Below, in pieces: positions 4,792-29,164 of a stretch of 64,000 nt of DNA. The DNA lies in contig CAYJMF010000004.1 in NCBI GenBank assembly GCA_964370855.1, positions 25,258 to 89,257 of the forward strand, written 5' to 3'. The translations under genes were made by a program, and so were the position numbers. This stretch comes from an uncultured Planctomycetota bacterium (GTDB lineage Bacteria > Planctomycetota > JAJSAM01 > JAKLKS01). Within the stretch, counting starts at the first letter, position 1, and each line of letters starts with the position of its first letter. A model generated the notes under the pieces. The model saw only the letters and a list, made by a program, of their open reading frames with translations. It ran no database searches and was not told the DNA's origin.

Positions 4792-5259
4792 ATGCCGAGC
4801 TTCGTGATCAGGGACAAGTGCGACGGCTGCAAGGCGCTCGACAAGACCGCCTGCCAGTACATCTGTCCCAACGACCTCATGGTCCTGGACAAGGCGACGT
4901 CGAAGGCCTTCAACCAGGATCCGCACATGTGCTGGGAGTGCTTCAGCTGCGTGAAGATCTGCCCGACCCAGGCCATCGAGATGCGCGGGTACGCGGACTT
5001 CACGCCCATGGGGGCCAGCGTCACCCCCATGCGCAGCTCCGAGGACATCATGTGGACCGTCCAGTTCCGGGACAAGTCCATCAAGCCGAAGCGGTTCAAG
5101 TTCCCCATCCGCCGCGGGGTGGCGGAGGGCAAGGCGCAGCCCTTCGACCTCTACCCGACCGGCGACGACAGCATCAAGAGCCCGACCCTGATGACGGAGC
5201 CGGCGGGGCTCAACAGGGAACTGGGCCCGGTGAAGTTCACCAAGGTCCCGACCCTCTGA
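4792..5259 (+). CDS. aprB: adenylylsulfate (APS) reductase beta subunit
   Basis: N-terminus MPSFVI.DKCDGCK and two ferredoxin-like Cys clusters. ~155 aa. Directly precedes aprA. Confidence 0.95.
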   Translation: MPSFVIRDKCDGCKALDKTACQYICPNDLMVLDKATSKAFNQDPHMCWECFSCVKICPTQAIEMRGYADFTPMGASVTPMRSSEDIMWTVQFRDKSIKPKRFKFPIRRGVAEGKAQPFDLYPTGDDSIKSPTLMTEPAGLNRELGPVKFTKVPTL

Positions 5260-5321
5260 TCGGGAACGGATAGGGAACCAGCGAGGGGCCCGGTGAACGG
5301 GCACCCGGAGGAGGGCAGGAC

Positions 5322-7214
5322 ATGAAGGGCTTCGAGACGGTCGTGGTCGAAACCGACCTCCTGATCTGCGGGGGCGGGATGGCCGCCTGCGGCGCGGCGG
5401 TGGAAGCGTCCTACTGGGCGAAGAAGCACGGACTCAAGGTGACGGTGGTGGACAAGGCCGCCATGGACCGTTCCGGCGCCGTCGCCATGGGGCTGTCGGC
5501 CATCAACCAGTACGTGGACCTCAACAGCGGCAAGAACACGCTGAAGGACTACGTGGACTACGTGCGGAACGACCTCATGGGGATCACCCGCGAGGACGTC
5601 GTCGCGAACATCGCGAGGCACGTCGACAACACGGTGCACCTCTTCGAGAAGTGGGGCCTCCCGATCTGGAAGGACAAGGAGGGCAACTACGTCCACGAGG
5701 GGCGCTGGCAGCTGATGATCAACGGGGAGTCCTACAAGGTCATCGTGGCGGAGGCGGCGAAGAACGCCCTCGCCGAGGCCGGCGGGCAGTACTTCGAGCG
5801 CGTCTTCATCACCCACCCGCTCATGGACGGCGACAGGTGCGCGGGGGCCATCGGCTTCAGCACCCGGGAGAACAAGGTCTACGTCTTCCGGGCGAAGGCC
5901 ACCCTGGCGGCCATGGGCGGTGCCGTCCACGTGTTCAAGCCCCGCTCCACGGGCGAGGGCTTCGGCCGTTCCTGGTACCCCCCCTTCAACTCCGGGGCCA
6001 GCGCCTTCTTCACCATCCAGGCGGGCGCCGAGATGACCTGCCAGGAGGTCCGCTTCATCCCCGTGCGGTTCAAGGACGCCTACGGTCCCGTGGGTGCGTG
6101 GTTCCTGCTCTTCAAGGCCGTCGCCACCAACGCCTACGGCGGCAACTACATGAAGGAGCGCGAGGGGGAACTCGACAAGTGGGCCCCCTACGGAAGGGTC
6201 AAGCCCGCCCCGGCCAACATCCGCAACTGGCTCATGATGCTGGACGTGATGGAGGGGAAGAGCCCGATCTACATGCAGACGGCGGACGCCATCAGGGCCA
6301 TCGCCGACAAGATCCCCGACGAGAAGGAGGGGAAGAAGAAGCTGAAGGAGCTCGAGAGCGAGGCGTGGGAGGACTTCCTCGACATGACCATCTCCCAGGC
6401 CATCCTCTGGGCGGCGACCAACACCGAGCCGGAGAAGAAGCCCTCCGAGATCATGGCCTGCGATCCCTACTTCATCGGCTCCCACTCGGGCGCTTCCGGC
6501 GCCTGGGTCTCCGGCCCCGAGGACCTGCAGACCGCGGAGACGAAGTCCGAGTACTTCTGGGGCTACGAGAACATGACGACCGTGAAGGGGCTGTTCGCCG
6601 CCGGCGACGCTTCCGGCGCGTCCAGCCACAAGTTCTCCTCCGGGTCCCACACGGAGGGCCGCATCGCCGCCAAGGCCGCGATCCGGTTCGTCCTGGAGAA
6701 CGCCAAGGGCCCGAAGGTCGACGAGGGCGAGGTGGAGAAGCTGAAGGCCGAGATCCTCCGCCCGATGGTCACCTTCGAGCAGCACAAGGACCTGACGACG
6801 GATCCCGACATCAACCCGAACTACATCCGCCCGACCCAGTTCATGTACCGGCTCCAGAAGATCATGGACGAGTACGCGGGCGGCGTCTCGTCGCAGTTCA
6901 AGACCAACAACAAGCTCCTCGAGAAGGGCATGGAGCTGCTGGCCTTCCTCAAGGAGGACTCGGCGAAGCTCGGGGCCAAGAACCTCCACGAGCTCATGCG
7001 CTGCTGGGAGAACGTCCACCGCACCTTCCAGGCCGACGCCCACGTGCGCTCCATCCTGTTCCGCGAGGAGACGCGGTGGCCGGGCTACTACTTCCGGGCC
7101 GACAAGCCGACCATGGACAACAAGAACTGGCTGGCGTTCTGCAACTGCCGCTACGACCGCAAGACGGGCGAGTGGACGATGATCAAGCGCCCGGTGAAGC
7201 ACGTCCTGAACTAG
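5322..7214 (+). CDS. aprA: adenylylsulfate (APS) reductase alpha subunit (FAD flavoprotein)
   Basis: 630 aa. FAD-binding N-terminus LICGGGMAACGAA. Consistent with AprA length and context. Confidence 0.95.
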   Translation: MKGFETVVVETDLLICGGGMAACGAAVEASYWAKKHGLKVTVVDKAAMDRSGAVAMGLSAINQYVDLNSGKNTLKDYVDYVRNDLMGITREDVVANIARHVDNTVHLFEKWGLPIWKDKEGNYVHEGRWQLMINGESYKVIVAEAAKNALAEAGGQYFERVFITHPLMDGDRCAGAIGFSTRENKVYVFRAKATLAAMGGAVHVFKPRSTGEGFGRSWYPPFNSGASAFFTIQAGAEMTCQEVRFIPVRFKDAYGPVGAWFLLFKAVATNAYGGNYMKEREGELDKWAPYGRVKPAPANIRNWLMMLDVMEGKSPIYMQTADAIRAIADKIPDEKEGKKKLKELESEAWEDFLDMTISQAILWAATNTEPEKKPSEIMACDPYFIGSHSGASGAWVSGPEDLQTAETKSEYFWGYENMTTVKGLFAAGDASGASSHKFSSGSHTEGRIAAKAAIRFVLENAKGPKVDEGEVEKLKAEILRPMVTFEQHKDLTTDPDINPNYIRPTQFMYRLQKIMDEYAGGVSSQFKTNNKLLEKGMELLAFLKEDSAKLGAKNLHELMRCWENVHRTFQADAHVRSILFREETRWPGYYFRADKPTMDNKNWLAFCNCRYDRKTGEWTMIKRPVKHVLN

Positions 7215-7228
7215 ACGACGGAAGCGAC

Positions 7229-7301: not shown

Positions 7302-7604
7302 ATGGCGGAGACGATGACGGCGGCGGAATCGACCACCTGCCCCCACTGCGGAGGCCGCCTCGTGAAGTGGGCCCTGCCGGAGGGGGCCACCTGGAACGAG
7401 AAGCACTTCCTCGCCTGCTTCTCCGACGCCTGCCCCTACTACCGGGACGGGTGGGACTGGATGTTCGAGGAGTTCGGACAGAGGGCGTCCTTCCGGTACG
7501 CCGAGACCCCGGGGACCCGCGAGAGAAGGATGATCCCCGTGTGGTCCGGCGAGGCGACCCGGCAGCAGATCGTGGCGGGGGACGGCGAAGGAGGCGACGC
7601 GTGA
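7302..7604 (+). CDS. small Cys-rich hypothetical protein (100 aa; CPHCGG..C..C zinc-ribbon-like)
   Basis: ATG start with a GGAGGG ~15 nt upstream. Strong GC3 bias. The stop overlaps the GTG start of the next gene. Confidence 0.45.
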   Translation: MAETMTAAESTTCPHCGGRLVKWALPEGATWNEKHFLACFSDACPYYRDGWDWMFEEFGQRASFRYAETPGTRERRMIPVWSGEATRQQIVAGDGEGGDA

Positions 7605-8515
7605 ATCCGGAACGGGCGAAGGGCGGGGAAGGCGGGGGGGGCGAAGGCGCCGGGGATGACGTGCGCGGGTTCAGAGCGCGGATCGTGGCGGAGCGGCCGA
7701 GGATGGGACCGGAGGACCGGTTCCGGTTCGACTGCCACCCGGGGCTCCCCTGCTTCAACCGGTGCTGCGGCGACGTGAACATCTTCCTGACCCCCTACGA
7801 CGTGCTGCGCATGAAGCGCCGTCTCGGGATGCCGTCGGGGGAGTTCCTGCGCAGGTACACGCTCCTCCCGGTCCAGGAGGGGATGAAGACCCCCGTGGTC
7901 CTCCTCCGGATGGGGGAGGACGGGAGGAAGTCGTGCCCCTTCGTCGGGGAGAAGGGGTGCGGCGTCTATGCCGATCGCCCCTGGCCGTGCCGCATGTACC
8001 CCGTGGGCCTCGCCTCGGCGAGGGACACGGAGGACGGCTGGAGGGGGGAGCGCTTCTACTACCTCCTCGACGACGGGGAATGCCGCGGATGCGGGGAGTC
8101 CCGCGAGTGGACCGTGCGGGAGTGGATGTCGGACCAGGGCGTCGACGAGTACGACGAGTGGGGCGAGGCGTGGAAGGAGCTGACCCTCCACCGCTTCTTC
8201 GAGAAGGGGGGGACGCTCCCGCCCCAGAAGATGGAGATGCTCTTCACCGCCTGCTACGACCTCGACCGGTTCCGCGAGTTCGTCTTCCGGACCACCCTGC
8301 TCGAGCGCTTCGAGGTGGACGACGACCTCGTCGAGGAGATGCGAACGGACGACGAGGCGCTGCTCCGGTTCGGGTTCCTCTGGCTCCGGTACATCCTCTT
8401 CGCCGAGCCCACGGTGCGCATGAGGCCCGGGGCGGCGGAGCGGTACCAGGAGAAGCAGGCCCGGAAGGCCGGCCGCGAGCCGGCCCCCTCGGGGGCGGGG
8501 AGGGAGGCGCGGTGA
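7601..8515 (+). CDS. YkgJ/UPF0153-family putative Fe-S/zinc-chelating protein (CxxCxxCC)
   Basis: Motif CHPGLPCFNRCCGD. The stop (TGA 8513-8515) overlaps the GTG start of qmoA. Confidence 0.55.
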   Translation: MNPERAKGGEGGGGEGAGDDVRGFRARIVAERPRMGPEDRFRFDCHPGLPCFNRCCGDVNIFLTPYDVLRMKRRLGMPSGEFLRRYTLLPVQEGMKTPVVLLRMGEDGRKSCPFVGEKGCGVYADRPWPCRMYPVGLASARDTEDGWRGERFYYLLDDGECRGCGESREWTVREWMSDQGVDEYDEWGEAWKELTLHRFFEKGGTLPPQKMEMLFTACYDLDRFREFVFRTTLLERFEVDDDLVEEMRTDDEALLRFGFLWLRYILFAEPTVRMRPGAAERYQEKQARKAGREPAPSGAGREAR

Positions 8516-9780
8516 CCCCGGACCGGAGCCCCCCCCGCGTCCTCGTGGTCGGAGGCGGAATCACCGGGATATCCGCCGCCGTCGAGGCGTCGGAGGCCGG
8601 GGCCGACGTGGTGCTGGTCGAGAAGGATCCGTTCCTCGGGGGGCGGGTCGCCCGCTCCCACCAGTACTTCCCCAAGATGTGTCCCCCCTCCTGCGGTCTG
8701 GAGATCAGCTACCGCCGGCTCCGGACGAGCCCCCGGATCCGCGTGATCACCCTCGGCGAGGTGGAGAGCGTCACGGGCTCCGCGGGGGCCTTCCGCGCCG
8801 TGGTCCGGCGCATGCCCCGGTTCGTGAACGACCGGTGCACCGCCTGCGGTGCGTGCGTGGACGCCTGCCCCGGGGAGCGGGCGGACGACTTCAACGCGGG
8901 GATGGGCAGGACGAAGGCCGTGCACATCCCCCCGGGGATCACCCATCCCGCGATCCACGCCATCGACGCGGAGGCCTGCAGGGGGGCCGCGTGCGGAAAG
9001 TGCCTCCCCGCCTGCGCCTACGGCGCCATCGACCTCGCCATGAAGCCCGTGACGGAGACCATCGACGTCGATTCCGTCATCTGGGCCACGGGCTGGCGGC
9101 CGCCCGACGCCTCCCGCCTCGAGGGGCTCGGCTTCGGGGTCCACCGGGACGTGATCACCAACGTGATGATGGAGCGCCTCGCCGCCCCGACGGGGCCCAC
9201 GGGGGGGGGGATCGTGCGCCCCTCCGACGGGAAGGCGCCCTCCTCCGTCGCCTTCGTGCAGTGCGCGGGATCCCGGGACGTGAACCACCAGGCCTGGTGC
9301 TCGGGGGTCTGCTGCATGGCAAGCCTCAAGCAGGCGCGTTACGTCCGCGAGAAGTGCCCCGAGGCGGAGGTCTTCGTGTTCTACATCGACATCCGGGCCC
9401 CGGGCCGCATGGAGGACTTCTTCGAGGAGGCCAAGAGGGACGAACGGTTCCACCTCGTCCGCGGGAAGGCCGCGAAGGTGGCGGAGGAGGACGGGGCCCT
9501 GATCGTCGAGGCCGAGGACACCTTCACGGGGGACATGGTGGAGCGGAAGGTGGACCTCGTCGTCCTCGCGACCGGAATGGCTCCCGCGGGCACGGGGGAG
9601 GCGAGGATCGACGGGGGCCCGCGGAAGGACGAGTTCGGCTTCCTTCTCGGGGACCAGCCCCTGGCGGGGATGTTCGCCGCCGGGTGCACCCGGCGGCCGG
9701 CGGACGTCGCCACCTGCGTGCGTGACGCCACGGGGACGGCACTGCGGGCCCTGGAGTTCCACCCGGGGGCCCACGCATGA
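8512..9780 (+). CDS. qmoA: quinone-interacting membrane-bound oxidoreductase subunit A (HdrA-like flavoprotein)
   Basis: FAD fold VLVVGGGITGISAA. HdrA-like Cys cluster. Position directly after aprBA. Confidence 0.9.
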   Translation: MTPDRSPPRVLVVGGGITGISAAVEASEAGADVVLVEKDPFLGGRVARSHQYFPKMCPPSCGLEISYRRLRTSPRIRVITLGEVESVTGSAGAFRAVVRRMPRFVNDRCTACGACVDACPGERADDFNAGMGRTKAVHIPPGITHPAIHAIDAEACRGAACGKCLPACAYGAIDLAMKPVTETIDVDSVIWATGWRPPDASRLEGLGFGVHRDVITNVMMERLAAPTGPTGGGIVRPSDGKAPSSVAFVQCAGSRDVNHQAWCSGVCCMASLKQARYVREKCPEAEVFVFYIDIRAPGRMEDFFEEAKRDERFHLVRGKAAKVAEEDGALIVEAEDTFTGDMVERKVDLVVLATGMAPAGTGEARIDGGPRKDEFGFLLGDQPLAGMFAAGCTRRPADVATCVRDATGTALRALEFHPGAHA

Positions 9781-12026
9781 GCGCCCGGACCGCCGTCTAC
9801 GTCTGCAGGGGATGCGGGATCGGCGAGGCCATGGACGTCGAGGCCCTGAGGGAGGCCGCGTCCGCCGAGGAGGGCGTCGACCTCTGCAGGGACCACGCCT
9901 GCCTCTGCGGGGACGAGGGGCGCGCCCTGCTGGCGGCGGACGCCCGGGACGGCGTCTCCCGCATGGTGGTGGGGGCCTGCTCGCCCCGGTTCAAGGCCGA
10001 AGCCTTCGCCTTCGACGGGTGCGCCACGGAGCGCGTGAACCTGCGCGAGTTCGTGGCCTGGAGCCACGAGCCCGGCCACGAGGACACCCGGATGCTCGCC
10101 GAGGACTACCTCCGCATGGGGATCGCCCGGGCCCGCAAGGTCCAGCGGCCGGAGCCCCCGCGGGAGGAGATCGACGGGACTGTGCTGGTGGTGGGCGGCG
10201 GGGCCGCCGGGCTGGAGGCCGCCCTCGGCGCCGCCCGCGCGGGGTCGAAGGTCGTCCTCGTCGAGAAGGAGGACCGCCTCGGAGGGTGGATGGGGCGCTT
10301 CGCCCGCGGGATCCCCCACGGCCCGGACTGGCGCGAGCCCGTGGCCGACGGCATGCGGCGGCGCATCGAGGAGGTCGAGGCCCACGAGGGGATCCGGGTC
10401 CTCACGGGAGCGAACGTCCGGTCCTGCAGGGGGCAGCCGGGCCGGTTCGACGTCGAGGTGGAGGTCCGGGGAGCGGCGGAGCCCCTCCGGGTCGGCGCCG
10501 TGATCCAGGCCACGGGCTGGATCCCCTACGACGCCTCGAAGCTCGGGCATCTCGGCTACGGCCGATCCCCCGACGTGATCACCAACGTCCGGATGGAGGA
10601 GATGATCGCCGCGGGGGCGATCCGGCGCCCCGGCGACGGGAAGCCGCCCCGCCGCATCGCCTTCATCCAGTGCGCCGGGTCGCGGGACGCGAACCACCTG
10701 CCCTACTGCTCGGCGGTCTGCTGCCGGGTGAGCCTCAAGCAGGCCATCGTCGCCCGCGGGCTCGAACCGTCGGCGGAGGTCTACGTCCTGTACAGGGACC
10801 TCCGGGCGCCGGGGCAGTACGAGGAGTTCTACCGGCGGGCACAGGAGGACCCGGGCATCTTCTTCACGAGGGCCGAGGTCCTCGGCGTCGAGCCCGTCGA
10901 CGGCGGCGCCCTGCGGATCCGGGCGGGCGAGGGGCTCCTCGGGAAGGGGTTCGAGATCGAGGCCGATCTCGTCGTCCTCGCCACGGGCATGGTCCCCCGG
11001 GCCGCGGACGGCGAGGCCCTGCGCCAGCTCGCCGACGCGAAGGCCGTGGTGGCGAAGGGGGAGCCCGGGACCCAGCTCGACGCCGCCCGGGCGACCGTGG
11101 AACGGCTGGCCCGCCACGAGGGGACTTCCATCCTCAACCTCGACTACAGGCAGGGACCGGACCTCCCCGCCCTCCGGTACGACTTCCCCGACTCCCACTT
11201 CATCTGCTTCCCCTACGAGACGCGGCGCACGGGGATCCTGGCCGCGGGCTGCACGCGGGCCCCCGCGGACTCGCAGGCTTCGAGGGAGGACGGGGCGGGA
11301 GCCGCGCTCAAGGCGATCCAGACCCTGGAGGTCGCCCGCAGGGGGGAGACGGCGCATCCCCGGTGGGGGGACGCCTCCCGGCCCGACTTCGCGCTGCAGC
11401 GCTGCACCCAGTGCAAGCGGTGCACCGAGGAGTGCCCCTTCGGGACCCTGAACGAGGACGCCAAGGGGACCCCCCAGCCCAATCCCACGAGGTGCCGCCG
11501 CTGCGGCATCTGCATGGGAGCCTGTCCGGAGCGCATCATCTCCTTCGGCGACTACAGCGTGGACATCATCTCCTCGATGATCAAGTCGGTGCACATCCCC
11601 GAGGAGTTCGACGAGAAGCCCCGCATCCTCGGCTTCCTCTGCGAGAACGACGCCTACCCGGCCCTGGACACGGCGGGGCTCCGGAGAATCCGGCACAGCG
11701 CGTGGATCCGCTTCATCCCGGTGCGGTGCCTGGGCTCCGTGAACGTGGTCTTCGTGGCCGACGCGCTGGCCCGGGGCTTCGACGGGATCCTGATGGTGGG
11801 GTGCAGGCCGGGAGCGGACTACCAGTGCCACTTCGTCCGCGGCAGCGAGCTGATGAAGACCCGGAGCACGAACATCCGCGAGAAGCTGAAGCAGCTGGCC
11901 CTCGAGGAGGAGCGCGTCCGCCTGGTGGAGCTATCCATCGCCGAGTTCGAGAGGCTGCCCCAGGTCATCGACGAGTTCGCGGCGAAGATCGTCGAGATGG
12001 GGCCCAGCCCCTTCAAGGGGTTCTGA
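9777..12026 (+). CDS. qmoB: quinone-interacting membrane-bound oxidoreductase subunit B (HdrA-like with MvhD-like C-terminus)
   Basis: 749 aa. Two HdrA-like regions and ferredoxin Cys motifs. The start overlaps the qmoA stop. Confidence 0.9.
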   Translation: MSARTAVYVCRGCGIGEAMDVEALREAASAEEGVDLCRDHACLCGDEGRALLAADARDGVSRMVVGACSPRFKAEAFAFDGCATERVNLREFVAWSHEPGHEDTRMLAEDYLRMGIARARKVQRPEPPREEIDGTVLVVGGGAAGLEAALGAARAGSKVVLVEKEDRLGGWMGRFARGIPHGPDWREPVADGMRRRIEEVEAHEGIRVLTGANVRSCRGQPGRFDVEVEVRGAAEPLRVGAVIQATGWIPYDASKLGHLGYGRSPDVITNVRMEEMIAAGAIRRPGDGKPPRRIAFIQCAGSRDANHLPYCSAVCCRVSLKQAIVARGLEPSAEVYVLYRDLRAPGQYEEFYRRAQEDPGIFFTRAEVLGVEPVDGGALRIRAGEGLLGKGFEIEADLVVLATGMVPRAADGEALRQLADAKAVVAKGEPGTQLDAARATVERLARHEGTSILNLDYRQGPDLPALRYDFPDSHFICFPYETRRTGILAAGCTRAPADSQASREDGAGAALKAIQTLEVARRGETAHPRWGDASRPDFALQRCTQCKRCTEECPFGTLNEDAKGTPQPNPTRCRRCGICMGACPERIISFGDYSVDIISSMIKSVHIPEEFDEKPRILGFLCENDAYPALDTAGLRRIRHSAWIRFIPVRCLGSVNVVFVADALARGFDGILMVGCRPGADYQCHFVRGSELMKTRSTNIREKLKQLALEEERVRLVELSIAEFERLPQVIDEFAAKIVEMGPSPFKGF

Positions 12027-18836: not shown

Positions 18837-19647
18837 GACCGCGGGGCCGGACGGGAGCCGACGCCGCTTCCTCAAGGAGGCGGCGGGGACGGTGCTGGGC
18901 CTCGGATGGGGCCTGCCCCTGCTGGCCGCCGGCTGCGGGACCCCTCCGGAAGGGGCGGAGGGCGGAGCGCCGTCCCGGCAGTGGGCCATGATCGTGGACG
19001 TCGAGAAGTGCCGGAGCGAAGCGGTGCGGCGCGCCTGCATCGATGCCTGCGACAGGGAGCACAACGTTCCGCGCATCCCGGATCCCGAGGAGCAGGTCAA
19101 GTGGATCTGGGAGGCGGAGCACGCGAAGGTGTTCCCCGAGCTCGTCCATCGGAACACCCCCGGGGAGTCCCGGCGTGCGCCGGTCCTGGTGCTGTGCAAC
19201 CACTGCACGAACCCGCCCTGCACCGCGGTCTGCCCGACGGGGGCGACCTGGAAGCGCGACACCGACGGGATCGTGATGATGGACATGCACCGGTGCATCG
19301 GGTGCCGGTACTGCATGGCGGCCTGCCCCTACGGGGCGCGCAGCTTCAACTGGCGGGACCCCCGGCCGCACGTCCCGACGGGCGTGGACGGCCAGCCCGC
19401 CTCGTCCTACCCCACCCGTACCCGCGGGGTGGTGGAGAAGTGCAATTTCTGCGTGGAGCGGATCGCGGAGGGCAGGCGCCCCGCGTGCGTGGAGGCCGCC
19501 GACTCCGTCGAGGGCGGCAGGGGGGCGCTGGTCTTCGGGGACACGGGCGATCCGGACTCCGAGGCGAGCCGTCTCCTGGCCGGAAGGAGGACCGTCGTCC
19601 GGAGGAGCCAGCTGGGGACGGGGCCCAATACGTACTACGTCGTCTGA
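18820..19647 (+). CDS. dsrO: DsrO (periplasmic 4Fe-4S ferredoxin, Tat signal)
   Basis: RRRFLK twin-arginine motif. Multiple CxxCxxCxxxCP clusters. Confidence 0.85.
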
Positions 19648-20905: not shown

Positions 20906-22135
20906 ATGGCGGACGCGAAGGGGAAGGGGACACCCCTCCTCGACGAGCTGGAGAAGGGACCCTGGCCGAGCTTCGTCACGCAGATCAGGAAGATGTCGGA
21001 GACGAAGGAGGAATGCGGGCAGCTCCTCGATCTCCTGGAGCGCTCCTACGGGGAGAGGGTCGGGCACTGGAAGCACGGGGGAATCGTCGGCGTCATGGGC
21101 TACGGCGGCGGCGTCATCGGCCGGTACAACGACCTGCCCGCGGACTACCCGAAGATCGCCCACTTCCACACCATCCGCGTGAACCAGCCGTCGGGATGGT
21201 TCTACACGGCGGAGGCTCTCCGGAAGATCTGCGACATCTGGGAGCGGCACGGCTCCGGACTCACGAACATGCACGGCTCCACGGGCGACATCATCCTGCT
21301 CGGGACGAGGACCGAGGAGCTGGAGCCCATCTTCAAGGAGCTCACCGACGCCGGTTTCGATCTCGGCGGATCCGGCTCCGACCTCAGGACCCCGAGCTGC
21401 TGCGTGGGCCCCGGGCGGTGCGAGTGGGCCTGCTACGACACCCTGGACCTGACCAACGACCTCACCCACCACTTCCAGGACGAGCTCCACCGGCCCGCGT
21501 TCCCGTACAAGTTCAAGATCAAGTGCGCGGGCTGCCCCAACGACTGCGTCGCCTCCATCGCCCGGGCCGACATGTCCATCATCGGCACGTGGCGCGACTC
21601 CATCAAGATCGACCAGGCGGAGGTGCAGGCGGCCGCGGCGAAGGGCCTGGACGTGCAGAAGGACGTCTGCGACCGCTGCCCGACCCGGTGCATGGCGTGG
21701 GACGGGAAGTCGCTCCGGATCGACGACGCCAACTGCGTGAAGTGCATGCACTGCATCAACGCCATGCCGAAGGCGCTCGCCCCCGGGGACGATCGGGGGG
21801 CGATGATCCTCCTCGGCGCCAAGGCTCCCATCGTGCAGGGGGCGCAGCTCTCCTCCGTGCTTGTCCCCTTCGTGAAGTTCGAGCCCCCCTACGACGAGCT
21901 GAAGGACCTCATCGAGCGCATCTGGGAGTTCTGGGGGGAGCACGGCAAGAACCGCGAGCGCGTGGGGGAACTCATGCAGCGCGTGGGACTGGGCAACTTC
22001 ATCGAGGCCATCGGGCTCGAGCCGCGCCCCGAGATGGTCGCGTACCCGAGGGACAACCCCTACGTCTTCTACGAGGAGTTCTTCGAGGAGGACGACGGGG
22101 ACGAGGACGCCGGGAAGGAAGGGGAAGGGAAATGA
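20906..22135 (+). CDS. dsrA: dissimilatory sulfite reductase alpha subunit
   Basis: Shine-Dalgarno AAAGGAGG upstream. Sirohaem/[4Fe-4S] Cys motifs (CxxxxxC..C..C). ~409 aa. Confidence 0.95.
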
Positions 22136-23214
22136 GCACCGCCACCAAGCGCACCACGGACATCGGGCCGCCCGACTTCAGGAAGTTCCTGCCGCCGATC
22201 GTCAAGGCGAACTACGGGAAGTGGAAGTACCACGAGATCCTCAAGCCCGGGGTGATGGTCCACGTCGGCCCCACCGGCGATCGGCTCTACACGGTCAGGG
22301 CGGCCTCGTCCCGGCTCCTCGGCATCTCCCGGATCCGCGACTTCGCGGACCTCGCCGAGAAGCACTGCGACGGCTACCTGCGGTTCACGAGCCGCAACAA
22401 CGTCGAGTTCCTCCTGACGGAGGAGAGGAACATCGATCCGCTCATCGCCGACCTGCGGGCCATCGGCCACCCGGTGGGGGGGATCGGGAACGCCATCTCG
22501 AACATCGTGCACACCCAGGGCTGGGTCCACTGCCACTCGGCGGCGACGGACGCCTCCGGGGTCGTGAAGTGCGTGATGGACGACCTGTGCGGGTACTTCA
22601 CCGGGCGGACGCTCCCCGGGAAGCTCCGCATCGCGCTCGCGTGCTGCCTCAACATGTGCGGGGCCGTCCACTGCTCCGACATCGCCATCCTCGGGATCCA
22701 CAGGCGGCCTCCCAGGGTCCAGAAGGGGCTGGGCAAGACGTGCGAGGTGCCCAACGTCGTCGCCTCCTGCCCGACCGGGGCCATCCGGCCGGCGTCGGTC
22801 GACGGCCAGCCGTCGGTCGAGATCGACGAGGAGAACTGCATGTACTGCGCCAACTGCTTCTCCGTCTGCCCGGCGCTCCCGATGGCCGATGCCATGAACG
22901 ACGGCATCTCGATCTGGGTCGGCGGGAAGGTCTCCAACGCGCGTTCGGAGCCGGCGTTCTCCAAGCTGGCCATCCCCTTCATCCCCAACAACCCCCCGCG
23001 GTGGCCCGAGGTGACGTCCGCCGTCCGCAACATCGTGGAGGTCTGGGCGAAGGACGCGCGCAGGTACGAGCGCATGGGGGAGTTCATCCAGCGCATCGGG
23101 TGGCCCCGGTTCTTCGAACTGACGGGAATCGAGTTCACCAAGCAGCACATCGACGACTTCAGGTACGCGGGCCTCAGCTTCAAGCGGTCCGCGCAGGTCC
23201 GGCAGAAGGCGTAG
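22132..23214 (+). CDS. dsrB: dissimilatory sulfite reductase beta subunit
   Basis: 360 aa. The start overlaps the dsrA stop. Ferredoxin-like Cys cluster. Confidence 0.95.
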
Positions 23215-23224: not shown

Positions 23225-23485
23225 ATGACTCCCACCGTGGAGGAGGTCGCGGACGCGATGTACGCCCTGGTGAAGGAGTACCAGGGGAGGAAGAAGTTCA
23301 AGGCCCTGGACCTGACCAAGGCCATGGTCCAGAAGTTCGGGGAGACCGACTGCGACAAGCAGAAGACCAAGGCGGCCATCCGCATCCTCATGGACTCCGG
23401 AAGGTGCGTCTACACCTACTTCGGGGGGAGCTTCATCGAGGTCCCCCACGTGGAGGGCGCGGCGGGCGGTTCGAACAACCCGTGA
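23225..23485 (+). CDS. dsrD: DsrD (small winged-helix protein, marker of reductive Dsr)
   Basis: 86 aa, Lys-rich helical protein 10 nt after dsrB. Confidence 0.85.
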   Translation: MTPTVEEVADAMYALVKEYQGRKKFKALDLTKAMVQKFGETDCDKQKTKAAIRILMDSGRCVYTYFGGSFIEVPHVEGAAGGSNNP

Positions 23486-23555: not shown

Positions 23556-25232
23556 ATGAAGGTCGTGAAGAAGAAGTCCTTCGGTACCCGGAGCTTCTCC
23601 GGTGGCGGCGGCGGCCGGGAGCAGTCCCCCCTGCGGCCGAGGCAGGTCGAGAAGAAGCCCCCGTGCCGGGACACCTGCCCCAGCGGAAACCGGATCCGGG
23701 AGTTCCTGACGGTCATCGCGCAGGCGGAACGGCTGCAGAAGCCCCCGGACGAGGCGTGGCGGGAGGCCTGGGCCATCTACACGGACACGAGCCCCTTCCC
23801 CGCGGTCTGCGGCCGGGTCTGCCCGGCGCCCTGCGAGACGCAGTGCAACCGCAGGGATCTCGACGGGGCCGTCTCCATCAACAAGGTGGAGCGGGCCATC
23901 GGGGACTACGGGATCGAGCACCGCCTTCCGCTCCTCAGGCTGACGGAGGAGCGGCGGCCCGAGCGCGTCGCCGTCGTCGGCGGCGGGCCGAGCGGCCTCT
24001 CCTGCGCCTACCAGCTCGCCCGCAGGGGCTACGGGGTGACGGTTTTCGAGGCGGCGGAGAAGGCCGGGGGGATGCTCCGGTACGGGATCCCCGGGTACCG
24101 CCTCCCCGACGCGATCCTCGATGCCGAGATCGCGAGGATCCTCGACCTCGGCGTGGAGCTGCGCTGCGGGACGAAGATCGGGACGGGCATCTCCCTCGAC
24201 GAGCTCGCGAGGACCCATGACGCGGTCTACGTCGCGCTGGGGGCCCAGCAGGGGATCCGGCTCGGCCTGGAGGGCGAGAACGCCGCCAACGTGTTCTCCG
24301 GGGTGGACTTCCTCAACCGGTTCCGCCACGGCGAGCGCCTCGACCTCGGCGAGGACGTCGTCGCCATCGTGGTCGGAGGGGGCGACACGGCCATCGACGC
24401 GGCCCGCATCTGCCGGCGCCTCCGGGCCAACGTGACCATCCTCTACCGCCGCACCCTCCAGGAGATGCCCGCCATCAAGGAGGAGGTGGAGGAGGCGATC
24501 CGGGAGGGCATCAGGGTGGAGTTCCTCGCCGCTCCCGTCGGCTTCCGGAGGGAGGGGGACCGCGTGACGGCCCTGAGGGCCGTCCGCATGTCCCTGGGCG
24601 AGCCCGACGCCTCGGGCCGCCGCCGCCCCGTCCCCATCGAGGGTTCGGAATTCGAGATCCCGGCCACCGCCGTCATCTCCGCCGTGAGCCAGGCGCCGGA
24701 CTTCACCGGCTTCGAGGCCCTCGTCGAGGGGAAGGACTGGGTGAAGGTGGACGGGGAGGGCGCCACGAAGGCGGGGAAGGTCTGGGCGGGGGGGGACGTG
24801 GTCCGGCTCGCCCTCGTCACCGACGCCGTCGGCCAGGGCCGCCGCGCGGCGGAGGCCATGGACCGGGGCTTCCGGGGCACTCCCGTCGCGGCCGAGGCCG
24901 GGCGGGTGATCCGCTCCGGGAGCATGCTCCTCGACCACTATCCCAGGGCGCCCCGGCAGGAGCCGGCGACCCTGGACCTCGAGAGCCGGATGGACTCCGT
25001 CGACAGGGAGGTCAACCTCGGCCTGAGCCGCGCCCAGGCCGTCGAGGAGTCGCGGCGCTGCATGAGCTGCGGCCGGTGCATGGACTGCGAGAAGTGCTGG
25101 ATGTACTGCCAGGCGCAGGGGATCGAGAAGCCGGCGACGAAGGGACAGGTCTACACCATCAAGACCGCCCTCTGCACGGGGTGCAGGAAGTGCGCCGAGA
25201 TCTGCCCCTGCGGGTTCCTCGAGATGGCGTGA
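23556..25232 (+). CDS. dsrL: DsrL-like NAD(P)H:acceptor oxidoreductase (GltD family, C-terminal ferredoxin domain)
   Basis: Two Rossmann motifs (VAVVGGGPSG, VAIVVGGGDTAID). N-terminal Cys cluster and C-terminal 2x[4Fe-4S] ferredoxin. Confidence 0.7.
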   Translation: MKVVKKKSFGTRSFSGGGGGREQSPLRPRQVEKKPPCRDTCPSGNRIREFLTVIAQAERLQKPPDEAWREAWAIYTDTSPFPAVCGRVCPAPCETQCNRRDLDGAVSINKVERAIGDYGIEHRLPLLRLTEERRPERVAVVGGGPSGLSCAYQLARRGYGVTVFEAAEKAGGMLRYGIPGYRLPDAILDAEIARILDLGVELRCGTKIGTGISLDELARTHDAVYVALGAQQGIRLGLEGENAANVFSGVDFLNRFRHGERLDLGEDVVAIVVGGGDTAIDAARICRRLRANVTILYRRTLQEMPAIKEEVEEAIREGIRVEFLAAPVGFRREGDRVTALRAVRMSLGEPDASGRRRPVPIEGSEFEIPATAVISAVSQAPDFTGFEALVEGKDWVKVDGEGATKAGKVWAGGDVVRLALVTDAVGQGRRAAEAMDRGFRGTPVAAEAGRVIRSGSMLLDHYPRAPRQEPATLDLESRMDSVDREVNLGLSRAQAVEESRRCMSCGRCMDCEKCWMYCQAQGIEKPATKGQVYTIKTALCTGCRKCAEICPCGFLEMA

Positions 25233-25236: not shown

Positions 25237-26679
25237 ATGAACATCCCGAGAATCCTGATCGCCGGGTTGCGCGGAGGCGGCGGCAAGACGCTCGTGGCCG
25301 TGGGGATCCAGGCGGCGTGGAGGAGGCGGGGGCTGGTCGTGGCCCCCTTCAAGAAGGGGCCCGATTTCATCGACACCGCGTGGTCCGCCGCCTCCGCGGG
25401 GCGGCCCTGCCGGAACCTGGACCTGTTCCTCTCCTCCCCGGAGAGGCTGGCGGCGTCCTTCGCCTCCGCGTGCGCGGGGGCGGAGGTCGCGGTCATCGAG
25501 GGGAACCGGGGGCTCTTCGACGGTGTGGACGCGCAGGGCTCCTGCAGCACGGCCGAGCTGGCGAAGCTCCTCCGGTGCCCCGTCATCCTCGTCGCGGACT
25601 GCGCCATGGCGACGCGGACCGTCGCGGCCATGGTCCTCGGATGCCGGGCACTCGACCCGTCGGTCCCGCTCCGCGGCGTGATCCTGAACCGCCTGGCCGG
25701 GGCCCGCCACGAGGCGGTCGTCCGGGCCGCCGTCGAGGAGGCCACCGGCCTCCCCGTGGTCGGGGCGATCCCCCGCCTGCCGACGGACATCCTCCCCGAG
25801 AGGCACATGGGGCTGGTCCCCCCCCCGGAGCGCGTCGGTCGGGAGGAGGCCATCCGGGAGGCGGGGGAGGCGGCCTCGCGGTTCCTCGATCTCGCGGCCA
25901 TCGAGGCGCTCGCGTGGACGGCACCGCCCTTCGACCCCCCCGTGCCCGCCTCCCGCAACCCGGGGACGGCGGGCCCCGGGCGCGTCCGCATCGGGGTCTT
26001 CCGCGACGCGGCCTTCCAGTTCTACTACCCGGAGAACCTCGATGCGCTGGTCCGGGAGGGGGCGACCCTGGTCGAGATCTCCCCGCTCGCGGATCGGTGC
26101 CTGCCCGAGGTGGATGCCGTGTACGCCGGGGGCGGATTCCCGGAGACCCATGCCGCGGGCCTGGCGGACAACGCCCCCTTCCGGGACTCGGTGCGCCGGG
26201 CGGCGGAGGGGGGGATGCCCGTCTACGCGGAGTGCGGCGGGGCGGTGTTCCTCGGCGAGACGCTGGACTACGGCGGAAGGGAGTACCCCATGGCCGGGGT
26301 CCTGCCCGTGGCCTTCGGATTCCAGGAGAGGCCCAGGGGGCACGGATACTCCCTCCTGGAGACGGTGGCGGAGAACCCGTTCTTCGCGGTCGGGGAGAAG
26401 CTGCGGGGCCACGAGTTCCACCACTCGTTCCCGCGGTCCGCATCGCGCGGGAACCTGGCCTTCGCCTTCCGGGTCGATCGCGGGACCGGGTTCGACGGCC
26501 GCAGCGACGGCCTCCTCGTCCGGAACGTCCTCGCCTGCTACACGCATCTCCACGCCCTCTCGGCCGAGGGGTGGGCGCCCGCGGTCGTGGCGGCGGCGAG
26601 GCGGTTCCGCGCCGGCGCCGCATCCGGCGCGGCCATGGCGGCCGCCGATCCGGTCCTCGCCGGGAGGGCCGGCCGATGA
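25237..26679 (+). CDS. dsrN: DsrN (cobyrinic acid a,c-diamide synthase-like sirohaem amidase)
   Basis: 480 aa CobB/CbiA-family protein. P-loop GLRGGGGKT. C-terminal glutamine amidotransferase region. Confidence 0.8.
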   Translation: MNIPRILIAGLRGGGGKTLVAVGIQAAWRRRGLVVAPFKKGPDFIDTAWSAASAGRPCRNLDLFLSSPERLAASFASACAGAEVAVIEGNRGLFDGVDAQGSCSTAELAKLLRCPVILVADCAMATRTVAAMVLGCRALDPSVPLRGVILNRLAGARHEAVVRAAVEEATGLPVVGAIPRLPTDILPERHMGLVPPPERVGREEAIREAGEAASRFLDLAAIEALAWTAPPFDPPVPASRNPGTAGPGRVRIGVFRDAAFQFYYPENLDALVREGATLVEISPLADRCLPEVDAVYAGGGFPETHAAGLADNAPFRDSVRRAAEGGMPVYAECGGAVFLGETLDYGGREYPMAGVLPVAFGFQERPRGHGYSLLETVAENPFFAVGEKLRGHEFHHSFPRSASRGNLAFAFRVDRGTGFDGRSDGLLVRNVLACYTHLHALSAEGWAPAVVAAARRFRAGAASGAAMAAADPVLAGRAGR

Positions 26680-27524
26680 GGTTCCTCCCCCTCGGGATCG
26701 ACCTGTTCAACAGGCCCTGCGTCGTCGTCGGCGGCGGCGTCGTGGGGACCCGCAAGGCGTTGACCCTCCTCCGGGCCGGGGCGGCGGTGACGGTGGTCTC
26801 CCCGGACGCGTCCCCGGATCTCCTCCGCGAGGTCGTCGCCGGCCGCGTCCTGTGGGTGAGGGAACGGTTCCGGAAGGAGCACCTCGAGGGGGCGTTCCTG
26901 GTGGTCATGGCCACCGACGACGGGGACCTCAACGAACGCGGGGGCCGGCTCGCCGCCGAGCGGCGGATCCTCTCCTGCGTGACCTCCGCCGCGGTCGATT
27001 CCCAGGTGATCTTCGGGGCCCTCCTGGACCACGGCGGCGCGACCGTGGCGACCTTCACCGACGGCAGGGATCCGGCCCTGGCGAAGAGGACCCGCGACGG
27101 GATCGCGGCCCTGCTCTCCCCCGGCGATGCGCCGGGGTCCGGGTCCGGCGCGCCCTGCGGCACGGTCCTCGTCCTGGTCGCCCACGGCAGCCGGAACCGT
27201 GGCTGGAGCGCCCCCCTGGAGGAGATGGTCCGGTCGATCCCCGGAGGAACGGGAACCGCGAGGGTGCGCCTGGCGTACTCCCAGTTCGCGCAGCCCACGC
27301 TGGAGCAGATCGTGGAGGAGGAGGTCCGCGCGGGCCGACGCCGGTTCCGGGTCCTCCCCCTCTTCATGACCGACGAAGGGCACGTGGAACGCGACATCCG
27401 TCCCGTGGTCGAGGGCCTGCGGGCCGCCCGCGGGTACATCGAGCTGGAGCTGCTGCCGGCGGTGGGCCGCCACCCGTCCTTCCGGGACCTGCTCGCCGGA
27501 ATCGCGAGGGAGGCGGCGAAATGA
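26676..27524 (+). CDS. bifunctional precorrin-2 dehydrogenase (SirC-like) / sirohydrochlorin chelatase (CbiX-like)
   Basis: N-terminal Rossmann VVVGGGVVGTRK as in CysG-N/SirC. C-terminal VLVLVAHGSRN as in CbiX. Confidence 0.65.
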   Translation: MRFLPLGIDLFNRPCVVVGGGVVGTRKALTLLRAGAAVTVVSPDASPDLLREVVAGRVLWVRERFRKEHLEGAFLVVMATDDGDLNERGGRLAAERRILSCVTSAAVDSQVIFGALLDHGGATVATFTDGRDPALAKRTRDGIAALLSPGDAPGSGSGAPCGTVLVLVAHGSRNRGWSAPLEEMVRSIPGGTGTARVRLAYSQFAQPTLEQIVEEEVRAGRRRFRVLPLFMTDEGHVERDIRPVVEGLRAARGYIELELLPAVGRHPSFRDLLAGIAREAAK

Positions 27525-29164
27525 GGACCGCGCGCCCGGAACCGGGAATCGTCTACCTGGTGGGAGCCGGCCCCGGCGACCCGGGACTCCTCACGCTGCG
27601 GGCCGCGGAGTGCCTGGCGAAGGCCGATCTCGTCCTGCACGACTACCTCGCCAACCCCGCGCTCCTCGAACGCGTCCGCCCCTCCGCGGAGATCGTCCGC
27701 CTCGGGCACCACTCCGACGGGAGGAGCCTCGAGCCCGACGGGATCACCGCACGGATGGTCGCGGAGGCCCTCGAGGGGAGGACCGTGGTGCGCCTCAAGG
27801 GCGGGGACCCCTCGATCTTCGGCCGCGGCGGCGACGAGGCGGACGCCCTGCGCGCCGCCGGGATCCCCTTCGAGATCGTCCCGGGGATCACCTCCGGGCT
27901 GTCCGTCGCCGCGTACGCGGAGATCCCCCTCACGCACCACGAGGACGCACCGGCGGTCGCCCTCGTGACGGCCCGGGAGCGGACCGCGAAGGGGGAACCC
28001 AACCAGGACTACGCGGCCCTGGCCTCCTTCCCGGGGACCCTCGTGTTCTACATGGGGGTCAAGGAGGTCGGGGACTGGAGCGGAGCCCTCATGGAGCACG
28101 GGAAGCCCCCGGAGACGCCGGTGGCCGTCGTGCGGTGGGCCACCCGCGCCCGGCAGCAGACCGTGCGGTGCACGCTCGGGACCGTCGCCCGGATCGTCGA
28201 GGAGCGGGGGCTCCGCCCCCCCTCCCTCTTCGTCGTGGGGAGGGTCGTCGCCCGCGCCCCCCGGCTCTCCTGGTTCGAGTCCCGCCCGCTCTTCGGCACG
28301 ACGGTCCTGGTGGCGGGTTCGGCCCCGACGTCCGGGAGGCTCCGGAAACAGCTGTCGGATCGGGGCGCCGAGGTCGTCGTCCAGGAGGCCATCCGCGTCA
28401 CCGGCCCGCCGGACCCGGCGGCCATGGACGCGGCCCTGGACGGGATCCGCCGCTACGACGGGCTGGTGTTCTCCAGCCCCAACGGCGTGGAGTCCATGAT
28501 GCGCAGGCTCTTCGAGCGCGGGGGTGACGTGCGGGGCCTGGCGGGGGTGAGGCTGATCGCGCTCGGCGCCGGGACCGCGGAGGCCCTCGTCCGCCACCAC
28601 CTCCGGCCCGATCTCGTCCCGGAGCGCATCGGGGCGGGGTCCCTCGCCCGCATCCTCGTCCTGGAGGGGGTGGAGCGGAGGTTCCTCCTGGCGAGGGCGA
28701 GCGACGACAGGTCCGTCCTGGCGAGGAAGCTGAGGGCCGCAGGGGCCGTCGTGGACGAGGTCGCGGTCTACGCGACCCGGAACGCGGACGAACCCGACCC
28801 CTTCCTGCTCCGGGCCCTGTCCGAGGGCGAGATCCACTGGGCCGCCGTCACGAGCGCCACCACCGCCCGCTCCCTGGTCCGCCTCTACGGCGACGCCCTC
28901 GCGACGGTCCGGATGGCGAGCATCAGCACGCTGACCTCCGACGCCCTGCGGGAACTGGGCCACCCTCCGGCGGCGGAGGCGGTGCCGCACACGATCCCGG
29001 GGCTCGTCGACGCCATCACGACGGCCGTGGGTGCCCTGGACCCGGAGGAGTCCGCGGTGGCCGCGAAGAGGCTCGAACTGGGCGACACGCGGTGCCGCGG
29101 TCCGGGAGAAAGGGCCTTCGAGGGCGGGACCGGATCCCCGGCCGGGATCCGGCGCGAGGGATGA
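27521..29164 (+). CDS. cobA-hemD: bifunctional uroporphyrinogen-III C-methyltransferase / uroporphyrinogen-III synthase
   Basis: N-terminal SUMT motif VYLVGAGPGDPGLLTL. The C-terminal ~250 aa are HemD-like. Confidence 0.8.
   Translation: MRTARPEPGIVYLVGAGPGDPGLLTLRAAECLAKADLVLHDYLANPALLERVRPSAEIVRLGHHSDGRSLEPDGITARMVAEALEGRTVVRLKGGDPSIFGRGGDEADALRAAGIPFEIVPGITSGLSVAAYAEIPLTHHEDAPAVALVTARERTAKGEPNQDYAALASFPGTLVFYMGVKEVGDWSGALMEHGKPPETPVAVVRWATRARQQTVRCTLGTVARIVEERGLRPPSLFVVGRVVARAPRLSWFESRPLFGTTVLVAGSAPTSGRLRKQLSDRGAEVVVQEAIRVTGPPDPAAMDAALDGIRRYDGLVFSSPNGVESMMRRLFERGGDVRGLAGVRLIALGAGTAEALVRHHLRPDLVPERIGAGSLARILVLEGVERRFLLARASDDRSVLARKLRAAGAVVDEVAVYATRNADEPDPFLLRALSEGEIHWAAVTSATTARSLVRLYGDALATVRMASISTLTSDALRELGHPPAAEAVPHTIPGLVDAITTAVGALDPEESAVAAKRLELGDTRCRGPGERAFEGGTGSPAGIRREG

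Follow-up and report, generated by a model that had tools for sequence, protein, structure and literature searches.

The stretch of DNA analyzed here, hereafter the window, comprises 64,000 nucleotides (nt) of contig CAYJMF010000004.1 (positions 25,258 to 89,257, forward strand) from the assembly GCA_964370855.1 of an uncultured Planctomycetota bacterium. We consider it likely that the window holds a tightly coupled, single-strand "supercluster" for dissimilatory sulfate reduction and the synthesis of its sirohaem cofactor, with a known, clade-specific layout that has been inherited mostly vertically. The pathway is probably reductive, following the canonical Sat-Apr-Qmo-Dsr route with its own cofactor branch, as suggested by the gene content.

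At a GC content of about 72%, raw lists of open reading frames (ORFs) in the window consist mostly of spurious frames. Genes were called by codon-position GC and start-codon context, and every candidate was then scanned against Pfam and NCBIfam. The frame analysis, using GC at third codon positions (GC3), together with the family scans, placed 23 genes between 4792 and 29164 (~24 kb), all on the plus strand, in the order aprBA-o100-o304-qmoABC-sat-osmC-like-dsrC-dsrT-dsrMKJOP-dsrAB-divergent dsrD-dsrL-dsrN-sirC-cbiX-cobA-hemD. The colinear, same-strand cluster reported by an earlier reading of this DNA (the initial annotation) is confirmed, as are its start/stop overlaps of 1-4 nt: eight junctions are 4-nt overlaps, two overlaps are longer (8 and 17 nt), and the other gaps measure 1-87 nt. 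Its further statement, that no unrelated genes interrupt the cluster, is not literally true, because three ORFs were overlooked (o100, o304, and the OsmC-like gene), all of which are conserved in synteny. A non-coding leader of 353 nt (4439-4791) precedes aprB.

Curated NCBIfam equivalog cut-offs are exceeded by both subunits of adenosine-5'-phosphosulfate (APS) reductase, AprB (beta, 4792..5259; TIGR02060, 185.7 bits, cut-off 135.65; also PF12139) and AprA (alpha, 5322..7214; TIGR02061, 895.5 bits, cut-off 641.75), and by the membrane haem b/Fe-S subunit QmoC (12028..13278; NF038018, 337.5 bits, cut-off 300). The same holds for DsrM (15852..16847; NF038037, 457.7 bits, cut-off 300), DsrK (16844..18469; NF045796, 708.7 bits, cut-off 400), DsrJ (18462..18836; NF038038, 113.6 bits, cut-off 100), DsrO (18820..19647; NF045797, 272.9 bits, cut-off 200), DsrP (19689..20873; NF045798, 435.9 bits, cut-off 350), DsrA (20906..22135; TIGR02064, 571.5 bits, cut-off 392.85), and DsrB (22132..23214; TIGR02066, 485.1 bits, cut-off 341.5). 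DsrK has one CCG tripeptide, at residue 443, and a Pfam CCG domain at 400-459. The sulfate adenylyltransferase Sat (13292..14530; NF003166, 504 bits; TIGR00339, 381 bits; PUA_2 and ATP-sulfurylase domains) and DsrC (14987..15304; PF04358, 132 bits; TIGR03342, 123 bits) pass subfamily-level NCBIfam cut-offs. QmoA and QmoB were assigned by their HdrA-like and FlpD domains and by gene position. QmoA (8512..9780), an HdrA-like flavoprotein encoded upstream of qmoB and qmoC, has HdrA-type matches over residues 9-415, with FAD and Fer4 domains; QmoB (9777..12026) is HdrA-like (HdrA2-type, 417 bits; Pyr_redox_2, Fer4) with a FlpD/MvhD-like C-terminus (PF02662, 131 bits). Hallmark motifs are present as well, namely both conserved cysteines in the DsrC C-terminus ACKVAGLPKPTGCV, three CxxCH motifs in the triheme cytochrome c DsrJ (CLRCH, CNRCH, and CWECH), and YRR in DsrL.

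Directly ahead of dsrM lies dsrT (15310..15855), encoding an RsbRD_N-domain protein (PF14361, 61.6 bits) that fits the definition of dsrT in Anantharaman 2018. At the 3' end of the cluster, dsrN (25237..26679) encodes a CobB-like amidotransferase (NF002204 CobB, 421 bits; CbiA, GATase_3), which is presumed to be a sirohaem amidase, a role read from gene context after Hausmann 2018. Two fusion genes complete the cofactor branch. The first, sirC-cbiX (26676..27524), joins a precorrin-2 dehydrogenase to a small class II chelatase and is equivalent to "dsrV" (NAD_binding_7, 85.7 bits; CbiX, 65.4 bits; TIGR01470 cysG_Nterm, 90 bits). The second, cobA-hemD (27521..29164), joins a uroporphyrinogen-III methyltransferase to the corresponding synthase and is equivalent to "dsrW" (TP_methylase, 169.8 bits; HEM4, 162.6 bits; TIGR01469, 261 bits). 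The pathway had been called complete, which is right for the core enzymes, but no sulfate transporter or pyrophosphatase gene was found inside 4792-29164.

The window derives from metagenome assemblies, and its colinearity could reflect an assembly or binning artefact joining different organisms. Such a chimera was rejected, and we regard its probability as negligible. An exact copy of the DsrB has entries in 51 blocks of the assembly collection. The 23 contigs that were read (up to 208 kb) come from independent ENA assemblies and keep the same neighbours, which means that the arrangement did not arise through faulty assembly. Furthermore, the order recurs in contigs of long-read metagenome-assembled genomes (MAGs), for example in an 803-kb contig (locus L017), and coding frame and GC3 are uniform over all junctions, including the 4-nt gene overlaps.

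The gene order is shared by many relatives. A DsrK-centred scan with one genome per GTDB species gave 80 loci, each with a 10-kb flank on both sides, onto which the window proteins were mapped with tblastn. As far as each locus reaches, 18 of the 80 are colinear with the window (L005-L020, L024, and L035), with DsrK identities of 78-87%, and the shared order takes in o100, o304, and the OsmC-like gene. Wherever the flank reaches, a partial aprA stands at the 5' edge of the colinear loci. Each of the 18 bears one of two phylum labels, either Gemmatimonadota, with Gemmatimonadales and Longimicrobiales among them, or Planctomycetota (Pirellulaceae and Planctomycetaceae). The same order is found in two published genomes, Planctomycetes bacterium RBG_13_63_9 (GCA_001828265.1, 2016; locus L088) and Gemmatimonas sp. 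SG8_17 (GCA_001303265.1, 2015; locus L090), in the latter without the OsmC-like gene. The window organism itself was not one of the GTDB representatives that the scan recovered, among which DsrK identity reached at most 87%.

In particular, dsrMKJOP lies directly 5' of dsrAB in 14 of the 80 GTDB loci where coverage allows, and in both published genomes. All 16 of these loci fall in the Gemmatimonadota/Planctomycetota-labelled clade. This order, which the initial annotation had rightly called atypical, is unusual in general and the rule in this clade. Elsewhere the genes are permuted or split. In Myxococcota, Acidobacteriota, Anaeromyxobacteraceae, and Ignavibacteriales the order is permuted to dsrAB-D-(L)-N-C-T-MKJOP. 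Where such a locus extends far enough (L023, L032, L033, L037, and L040), aprBA is encoded on the opposite strand, upstream of dsrAB, with qmo and sat not contiguous. Two Thermodesulfobacteriota/Desulfobacterales MAGs have dsrAB-N-C-osmC-T-MKJOP-aprBA-o304-o304-qmoAB, the clusters of Syntrophaceae are split, and Desulfobacterota loci are permuted or split. The clusters of the Acidobacteriota, Myxococcota, and Ignavibacteriales (Hausmann 2018; Anantharaman 2018, Fig. 5; Neukirchen 2023) contain the same dsr set, including the divergent DsrD family, DsrL-2, DsrN, and DsrT. In those of the Acidobacteriota type, sirohaem genes (dsrV/dsrWa) are nearby and the whole dsr pathway often forms one region, but compared with the window they are a cyclic permutation, with dsrABDLN ahead of dsrCTMKJOP.

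Within the clade, the relatives (18 MAGs, SG8_17, and RBG_13_63_9) share the order of the window at protein identities of 42-87%, and differ from it in several details. SirC and CbiX are fused in the window and encoded by separate genes in locus L089. Between these two genes, L089 encodes (8667-12036) a 748-amino-acid (aa) protein with Ferrochelatase and GlutR_N Pfam matches. In L006, L007, L017, and L089, Cytidylate_kin2 genes follow directly after dsrN, as a pair; in L089 they stand inside the cluster and are followed by a TauE gene, ahead of the sirohaem genes. The Planctomycetota-labelled loci have a sat of a different type, as do L009, L019, and L035, and the gene is absent from its slot in L011 and L014.

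Neither the consolidation nor the gene order is new: both typify a clade that is already known, and the idea behind them has been in print since 2005. Clustered sulfate-respiration genes were reported by Mussmann et al. 2005 (J Bacteriol 187:7126) for the fosmids ws39f7, ws7f8, and hr42c9 from marine sediment. According to PMC2702500, which summarises that study, the clustering favours a "metabolic island" and a conserved progenitor whose genes later became scattered. Like the window, the fosmids have uncultured hosts and carry sulfate-reduction genes on one fragment, which was read as a co-transferred unit (PMC2702500). Accession numbers quoted elsewhere place aprBA and dsrAB together on one clone, 11-17 genes apart, and from this numbering alone an order dsrAB...dsrMKJOP...aprBA is suggested, which would be a different permutation from that of the window. 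The abstract of the fosmid study is said to describe a cluster with genes for the synthesis of the DsrAB prosthetic group and for novel conserved hypothetical proteins. Genes related to dsrL are also present on the fosmids (Löffler 2020).

The window is tentatively linked to the fosmid clade by transitivity, as its DsrB is 81% identical to that of Gemmatimonas sp. SG8_17, which itself belongs to DSR-J (Baker 2015). The full pathway of sulfate reduction has been reported for bin SG8-17, with dsrAB of the reducing type in clade DSR-J, which had previously been known from fosmids only and was hypothesised to be horizontally transferred (Baker 2015). Thiel 2019 placed the fosmid sequences in an "Environmental Supercluster", and clustered sulfate-respiration genes were reported again by Anantharaman 2018 and Gong 2024. 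Löffler 2020 includes Gemmatimonadetes and Planctomycetes in its list of dsrL carriers, Neukirchen 2023 describes consecutive DsrABDNCTMKJOP clusters in several bacterial lineages, and acidobacterial clusters contain dsrV and dsrWa as sirohaem genes (Hausmann 2018). Neither Gemmatimonadota nor Planctomycetota is mentioned in the main text of Diao 2023 or of Neukirchen 2023. The initial annotation had allowed that its finding would be refuted if the same arrangement proved common and well catalogued in close relatives. With an identical order in 18 GTDB species representatives and in genomes public since 2015 and 2016, this is largely the case; the synteny comparison it had proposed showed the order to be real and shared by relatives, and also already catalogued. 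Likewise, the delineation of a minimal gene set, for which the lineage was thought useful, has already been done (Mussmann 2005; Neukirchen 2023).

Model sulfate reducers, such as Desulfovibrio and Desulfobacterium autotrophicum, share with the window the same enzymes, the presumed mechanism, and the linkage of aprBA with qmoABC. A CobA-HemD fusion is known from D. vulgaris too, and Rex control of sat is known in model reducers. To our knowledge, however, model sulfate reducers have no o100 or OsmC-like companions. They also have a canonical DsrD recognised by Pfam, lack DsrL, and have their genes scattered on the chromosome (PMC2702500). The window is indeed far more consolidated, as had been stated: sat, aprAB, and dsrABC are scattered in D. 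autotrophicum and other sequenced reducers (PMC2702500).

The distribution across two phyla raises the question of inheritance. Seven Dsr proteins were concatenated (2301 columns) for a neighbour-joining tree, in which the window falls within the Gemmatimonadota-labelled group, as sister to L007, and the Planctomycetota-labelled loci form adjacent coherent subclades that are not intermixed. Separate trees of qmoABC plus o304, and of dsrD, dsrL, and dsrN, contain the same sister pairs. The sat slot is discordant. It holds two deeply divergent types, with 66-79% and 42-51% identity to the window, which looks like in-place gene replacement. Overall, these comparisons suggest that the cluster passed between phyla long ago, or was acquired in common, and has since descended for the most part vertically, with local replacement of sat.

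A recently mobile genomic island, the "transferable unit" of the initial annotation, would also place the same permutation, at 70-87% protein identity, in MAGs labelled as two phyla. Concomitant horizontal transfer was proposed by Mussmann 2005, as relayed in PMC2702500, and the Planctomycetota labels of a close AprA fragment and of the nearest named HemA, set against a cluster that groups with Gemmatimonadota-labelled loci, could be taken in the same sense. This explanation was already disfavoured, and we find it very improbable. No tRNA gene was found in the window, and neither an integrase nor a transposase turned up in those flanking genes that were scanned with Pfam or NCBIfam. The composition of the cluster is not anomalous, its GC content (70.6%) lying 2 percentage points from that of the rest of the window (72.7%), and the GC content of the relatives' loci (55-69%) tracks their hosts. 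The phylum labels form coherent subclades, and within Gemmatimonadota no transfer from other phyla was detected by Gong 2024. By these marks the cluster is not a currently mobile island, and "transferable" is valid only in the ancient sense of sharing between phyla.

Two proteins bear on the direction of the pathway, the first of which is encoded directly after dsrB. This 86-aa winged-helix protein (23225..23485) had been called DsrD. It has no match in Pfam (PF08679, E up to 0.01) or NCBIfam, and of 19 aligned members of its family, scanned at E up to 10, none matches PF08679. We accordingly do not count the protein as a member of PF08679. The solved structure of DsrD, 1UCR, was not reached in PDB searches with the single sequence (phmmer) or the family profile. 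At least 1250 database relatives were found, all without a Pfam domain, and the named ones are mostly "hypothetical protein". The D. vulgaris DsvD sequence, identical to 1UCR, gave no significant alignment by itself with the 19-member family (hhalign, E=0.28). Canonical DsrD genes, however, were recovered 3' of dsrB in Desulfobacterota loci (phmmer E 5e-11 to 3e-28), and the profile of these canonical proteins aligned with the divergent family at P=4.5e-5 (hhalign, probability 69%) over 62 columns, which is the whole domain.

The predicted fold points in the same direction. An AlphaFold2 model of the protein (predicted local distance difference test score, pLDDT, 81.7) has an H1-β-H2-H3-hairpin winged-helix topology. 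Foldseek returned only generic winged-helix matches for this model, none with E <1e-3, among them the Zα domain of ADAR1. This domain has reportedly been published as a structural neighbour of DsrD. In the loci examined, the ORF always stands directly after dsrB, and the ORFs in this position in Acidobacteriota loci are 51-60% identical to that of the window. Proteins in the DsrD position of the Acidobacteria studied by Hausmann 2018 were named DsrD there from conserved hydrophobic residues. Judged by profile, fold, and position, the 86-aa protein is a remote DsrD homologue that annotation libraries do not recognise, and it probably works like DsrD. The original call is corrected accordingly.

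The second protein is DsrL (23556..25232, 558 aa; NF009410, 550 bits). It has an NfnB/GltD-like architecture (Fer4_20, Pyr_redox_2) with an added C-terminal ferredoxin domain (Fer4), and Fe-S cysteine clusters at both termini. According to Löffler 2020, the YRR motif marks DsrL-2, which is specific for nicotinamide adenine dinucleotide phosphate (NADP(H)), and the DsrL-1A kind has an insertion of ~32 aa or a long linker. The motif is present in the window protein at residues 297-299, in the context TILYRRTLQ, and the protein agrees with the DsrL-2 definition of that study. DsrD and DsrL-2, a pairing named DsrL-2C, beside a reductive DsrAB indicate reductive operation (Diao 2023).

Alternatively, the gene set could run in reverse, oxidising sulfide or sulfur, or serve sulfur disproportionation, for which Desulfurivibrio alkaliphilus is an example. 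The cluster does encode a DsrL, and sulfur oxidisers can have DsrL-2 too (Löffler 2020). Hausmann 2018 raised the reverse or disproportionation option for Acidobacteria with the same gene set, Gong 2024 found 14 Gemmatimonadota MAGs with both DsrAB and SQR, and disproportionators cannot be told from reducers by their genes (Anantharaman 2018). Here, though, a DsrD homologue is encoded directly 3' of dsrB, DsrL carries the YRR motif of the NADPH type and forms with DsrD the pairing that, beside reductive-type DsrAB, Diao 2023 takes to indicate reduction, and the Pfam and NCBIfam scans found no dsrEFH, sox, or sqr in the 64-kb window. We therefore view an oxidative or disproportionating pathway as rather unlikely and prefer the reductive direction.

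In the reductive direction, the proteins of the cluster would cooperate in the following way. The steps are drawn from established knowledge of these enzyme families, whereas the gene identities, their order and coupling, and the conservation of the layout are observed. Sat would convert sulfate to APS, which AprBA would reduce to sulfite, releasing adenosine monophosphate (AMP), with electrons from the quinol pool delivered via QmoABC. DsrAB together with DsrC would then reduce sulfite to the DsrC trisulfide, and DsrMKJOP would convert the trisulfide to sulfide and regenerated DsrC. The divergent DsrD is a probable allosteric activator of DsrAB, and DsrL-2 would pass electrons from NADPH to DsrAB. 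CobA-HemD, SirC-CbiX, and DsrN would lead from hydroxymethylbilane to siro(haem)amide, and DsrT is a presumed regulator. Transcription would start in the aprB leader and cover the cluster in a single long transcript or a small number of them, under a redox regulator of the Rex or CRP type.

This model of regulation comes from an operator search, which was made because the window encodes rex (~59790-60455, 195 bits). Two patterns were used, the Rex operator consensus TTGTGAA-N4-TTCACAA and the core TGTGA-N6-TCACA, with shuffled sequences as reference. The core, with up to one mismatch, occurs three times in the window against 0.30 expected, and none of 100 shuffles reached three. The 18-nt consensus, matched at 10 or more of 14 positions, occurs at four intergenic sites in 3804 nt against 0.10 expected, and none of 500 composition-matched shuffles reached four. 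One candidate Rex/CRP-type operator, the palindrome TCGTGATGTACATCACAG (4492..4509), lies in the leader ~285 nt 5' of aprB and just 5' of a TTGACA hexamer (4515-4520). Further candidate operators are found between a TauE gene (TauE2) and a response regulator gene (40186-40203), upstream of a cytK2-TauE4-dikinase operon (52043-52060), and, as a perfect palindrome, between rex and hemA (60463-60480). A fifth site (59525-59542) stands at the 5' end of a DsrM-like gene, upstream of rex.

Together, the candidate sites would link the aprB leader, the cytK2-TauE4-dikinase operon, the TauE/response-regulator pair, and rex-hemA into one candidate regulon. The predicted operator upstream of aprB and of the downstream module may be new. 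Rex is known to repress sat in D. vulgaris (PMC7531388). Similar boxes occur 5' of dsrT or dsrA in some relatives, with a 14/14 match in L084 for example, and the loci of the closest relatives end short of the aprB leader. No sigma-70-like promoter or intrinsic terminator rose above chance within 4300-24000, and there was no match to an Rfam family. The strong co-regulation proposed by the initial annotation is plausible in view of the tight coupling, the lack of a terminator signal above chance, and the single candidate operator upstream of aprB.

Two further features were seen around these sites. An exact direct repeat of 11 nt, CTATTCGTGAT, occurs twice in the aprB leader (4488-4498 and 4719-4729) and nowhere else in the window; its first copy (4488-4498) overlaps the candidate operator. 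At the other end, rex is followed by hemA (60485-61843; glutamyl-tRNA reductase, 295 bits), and a translationally coupled gene pair on the minus strand (56898-59536) is divergent from rex, encoding a DsrM-like protein of the NarI type (58505-59536) and a DsrK/HdrD-like protein with a CCG motif (56898-58508). In relatives, by contrast, a Cytochrom_C_asm gene stands ahead of hemA, and hemC, hemD, hemB, and hemL come after it.

Several points weigh against the picture of a reductive, redox-controlled, and mostly vertically inherited supercluster. Direction is not provable from genes alone (Löffler 2020; Anantharaman 2018). The DsrD assignment consists of a weak profile match, a fold, and a position. 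The core of the candidate operator is identical to the CRP/FNR consensus, so the regulator could be of the CRP/FNR type just as it could be Rex. Inheritance was not strictly as a unit, as indicated by the two sat types and by L019 and L035, which side with the Planctomycetota type in both sat and qmo. Finally, the cluster tree points to Gemmatimonadota, but the label Planctomycetota is carried both by an AprA fragment with an identity of at least 90% and by the named HemA that is nearest (52% identity), compared with only 41% for a Gemmatimonadetes-labelled HemA. Other HemA homologues have roughly 40% identity and come from mixed phyla. In these sequence comparisons the signal for the host phylum, Gemmatimonadota or Planctomycetota, is ambiguous.

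The three ORFs overlooked before are conserved parts of the cluster. The first, o100 (7302..7604), encodes a Zn-ribbon-like protein of 100 aa with cysteines C13, C16, C39, and C44, and has no Pfam or NCBIfam match. It is kept after aprA in L005-L020 and L035, and is also found in L099, L118, and L119. The second, o304 (7601..8515), encodes a CxxCxxCC protein of the YkgJ family with 304 aa (PF03692, 32.1 bits, cut-off 23) and is translationally coupled to o100 and qmoA. Its product is 59-66% identical within the clade, and no relative was found in the PDB. Two copies stand between aprA and qmoA in L043 and L045. In L099, L118, and L119 o304 follows aprBA-o100, and in L118 and L119 both ORFs stay with aprBA despite a rearranged qmo. 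The third is the OsmC-like gene (14542..14922; PF02566, 46.7 bits, cut-off 27.5), which is also called OsmC on the source contig and encodes 126 aa with Cys47, Cys56, and Cys109. It stands between sat and dsrC in the clade and adjoins dsrC in L043, L045, and L069.

Downstream of cobA-hemD, an accessory module spans 29184-56917. It begins on the minus strand with a Cytidylate_kin2-BON gene (29184..30335; PF13189, 133.6 bits, plus BON), and a second Cytidylate_kin2-like copy, cytK2, is found on the plus strand at 52303-53142. Furthermore, the module includes four TauE/TSUP genes (37899-39038 on the minus strand; 39188-40156, 41083-42147, and 53143-54273 on the plus strand) and five genes with PPDK_N and PEP-utilizers domains (31602-34118, 34553-38104, 44711-47287, and 49335-51950, all on the minus strand, and 54263-56917 on the plus strand), with histidine kinases and response regulators interspersed. 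The module is amplified four- to five-fold downstream of the cluster, and one of its operons has a candidate operator of the aprB type. The PPDK_N-like proteins are 30-39% identical to each other, and paralogues in the module are 30-50% identical overall. The C-terminal third of the PPDK_N-like proteins (~300 aa) has no match in Pfam or the PDB. TSUP proteins are candidate sulfate transporters (Marietou 2018).

A link between this module and the cluster is probable. Scanning metagenomes with cytK2 gave 16 loci, each 6 kb or longer, that encode a full-length relative with an identity of 39% or above. In 13 of them, sat, aprBA, qmo, dsr, or sirohaem genes lie within 10 kb, in several different orders, and the remaining three contain only the TauE/dikinase/kinase module. 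None of 16 loci with more distant cytK2 relatives (34-38% identity) contained sat, apr, qmo, dsr, or sirohaem genes. A module of Cytidylate_kin2, TauE, and PPDK_N genes beside sulfate-reduction genes may be new, and our literature search found no report that links a Cytidylate_kin2 or cytidylate-kinase-like gene to dsr, apr, or sat clusters. In the PDB, cytK2 matches only uncharacterised structural-genomics proteins. Its P-loop is degenerate, with no canonical Walker A lysine, and the idea of a dedicated AMP kinase was therefore dropped, except as speculation.

Taken together, the conserved parts that are absent from the textbook pathway, that is o100, o304, the OsmC-like protein, and the accessory module, might serve sulfate respiration in this clade, a joint reading that we offer tentatively and with some doubt. 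Under it, o100 and o304 could act at the electron transfer step between AprBA and Qmo, the OsmC-like thiol protein is placed beside DsrC, and the module could provide sulfate import or sulfite export together with nucleotide and phosphoryl handling.

On the other side of the cluster, the region 149-3531 encodes two proteins, one matching DUF5682 (857 bits) and the other VWA_CoxE (164 bits). An ORF without family assignment (3563-4438) lies between the VWA_CoxE gene and the leader of the cluster. None of these upstream genes (149-4438) appears to be tied to sulfur metabolism.

As a finding on consolidation, the cluster adds little, since the island has been discussed since 2005 and the layout has been public since 2015-2016. 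Its parts have further implications. A DsrD that is invisible to the family libraries is the one carried by this clade and by many other clades outside the Desulfobacterota; pipelines based on Pfam or NCBIfam would score such genomes as dsrD-negative and could misjudge the direction of their pathway. One candidate operator heading a 24-kb unit would offer a simple and testable model for the redox control of the whole pathway. Finally, the three small ORFs and the accessory module are candidates for functions that are still missing from it, namely transport, the coupling of Apr to Qmo, and nucleotide handling.

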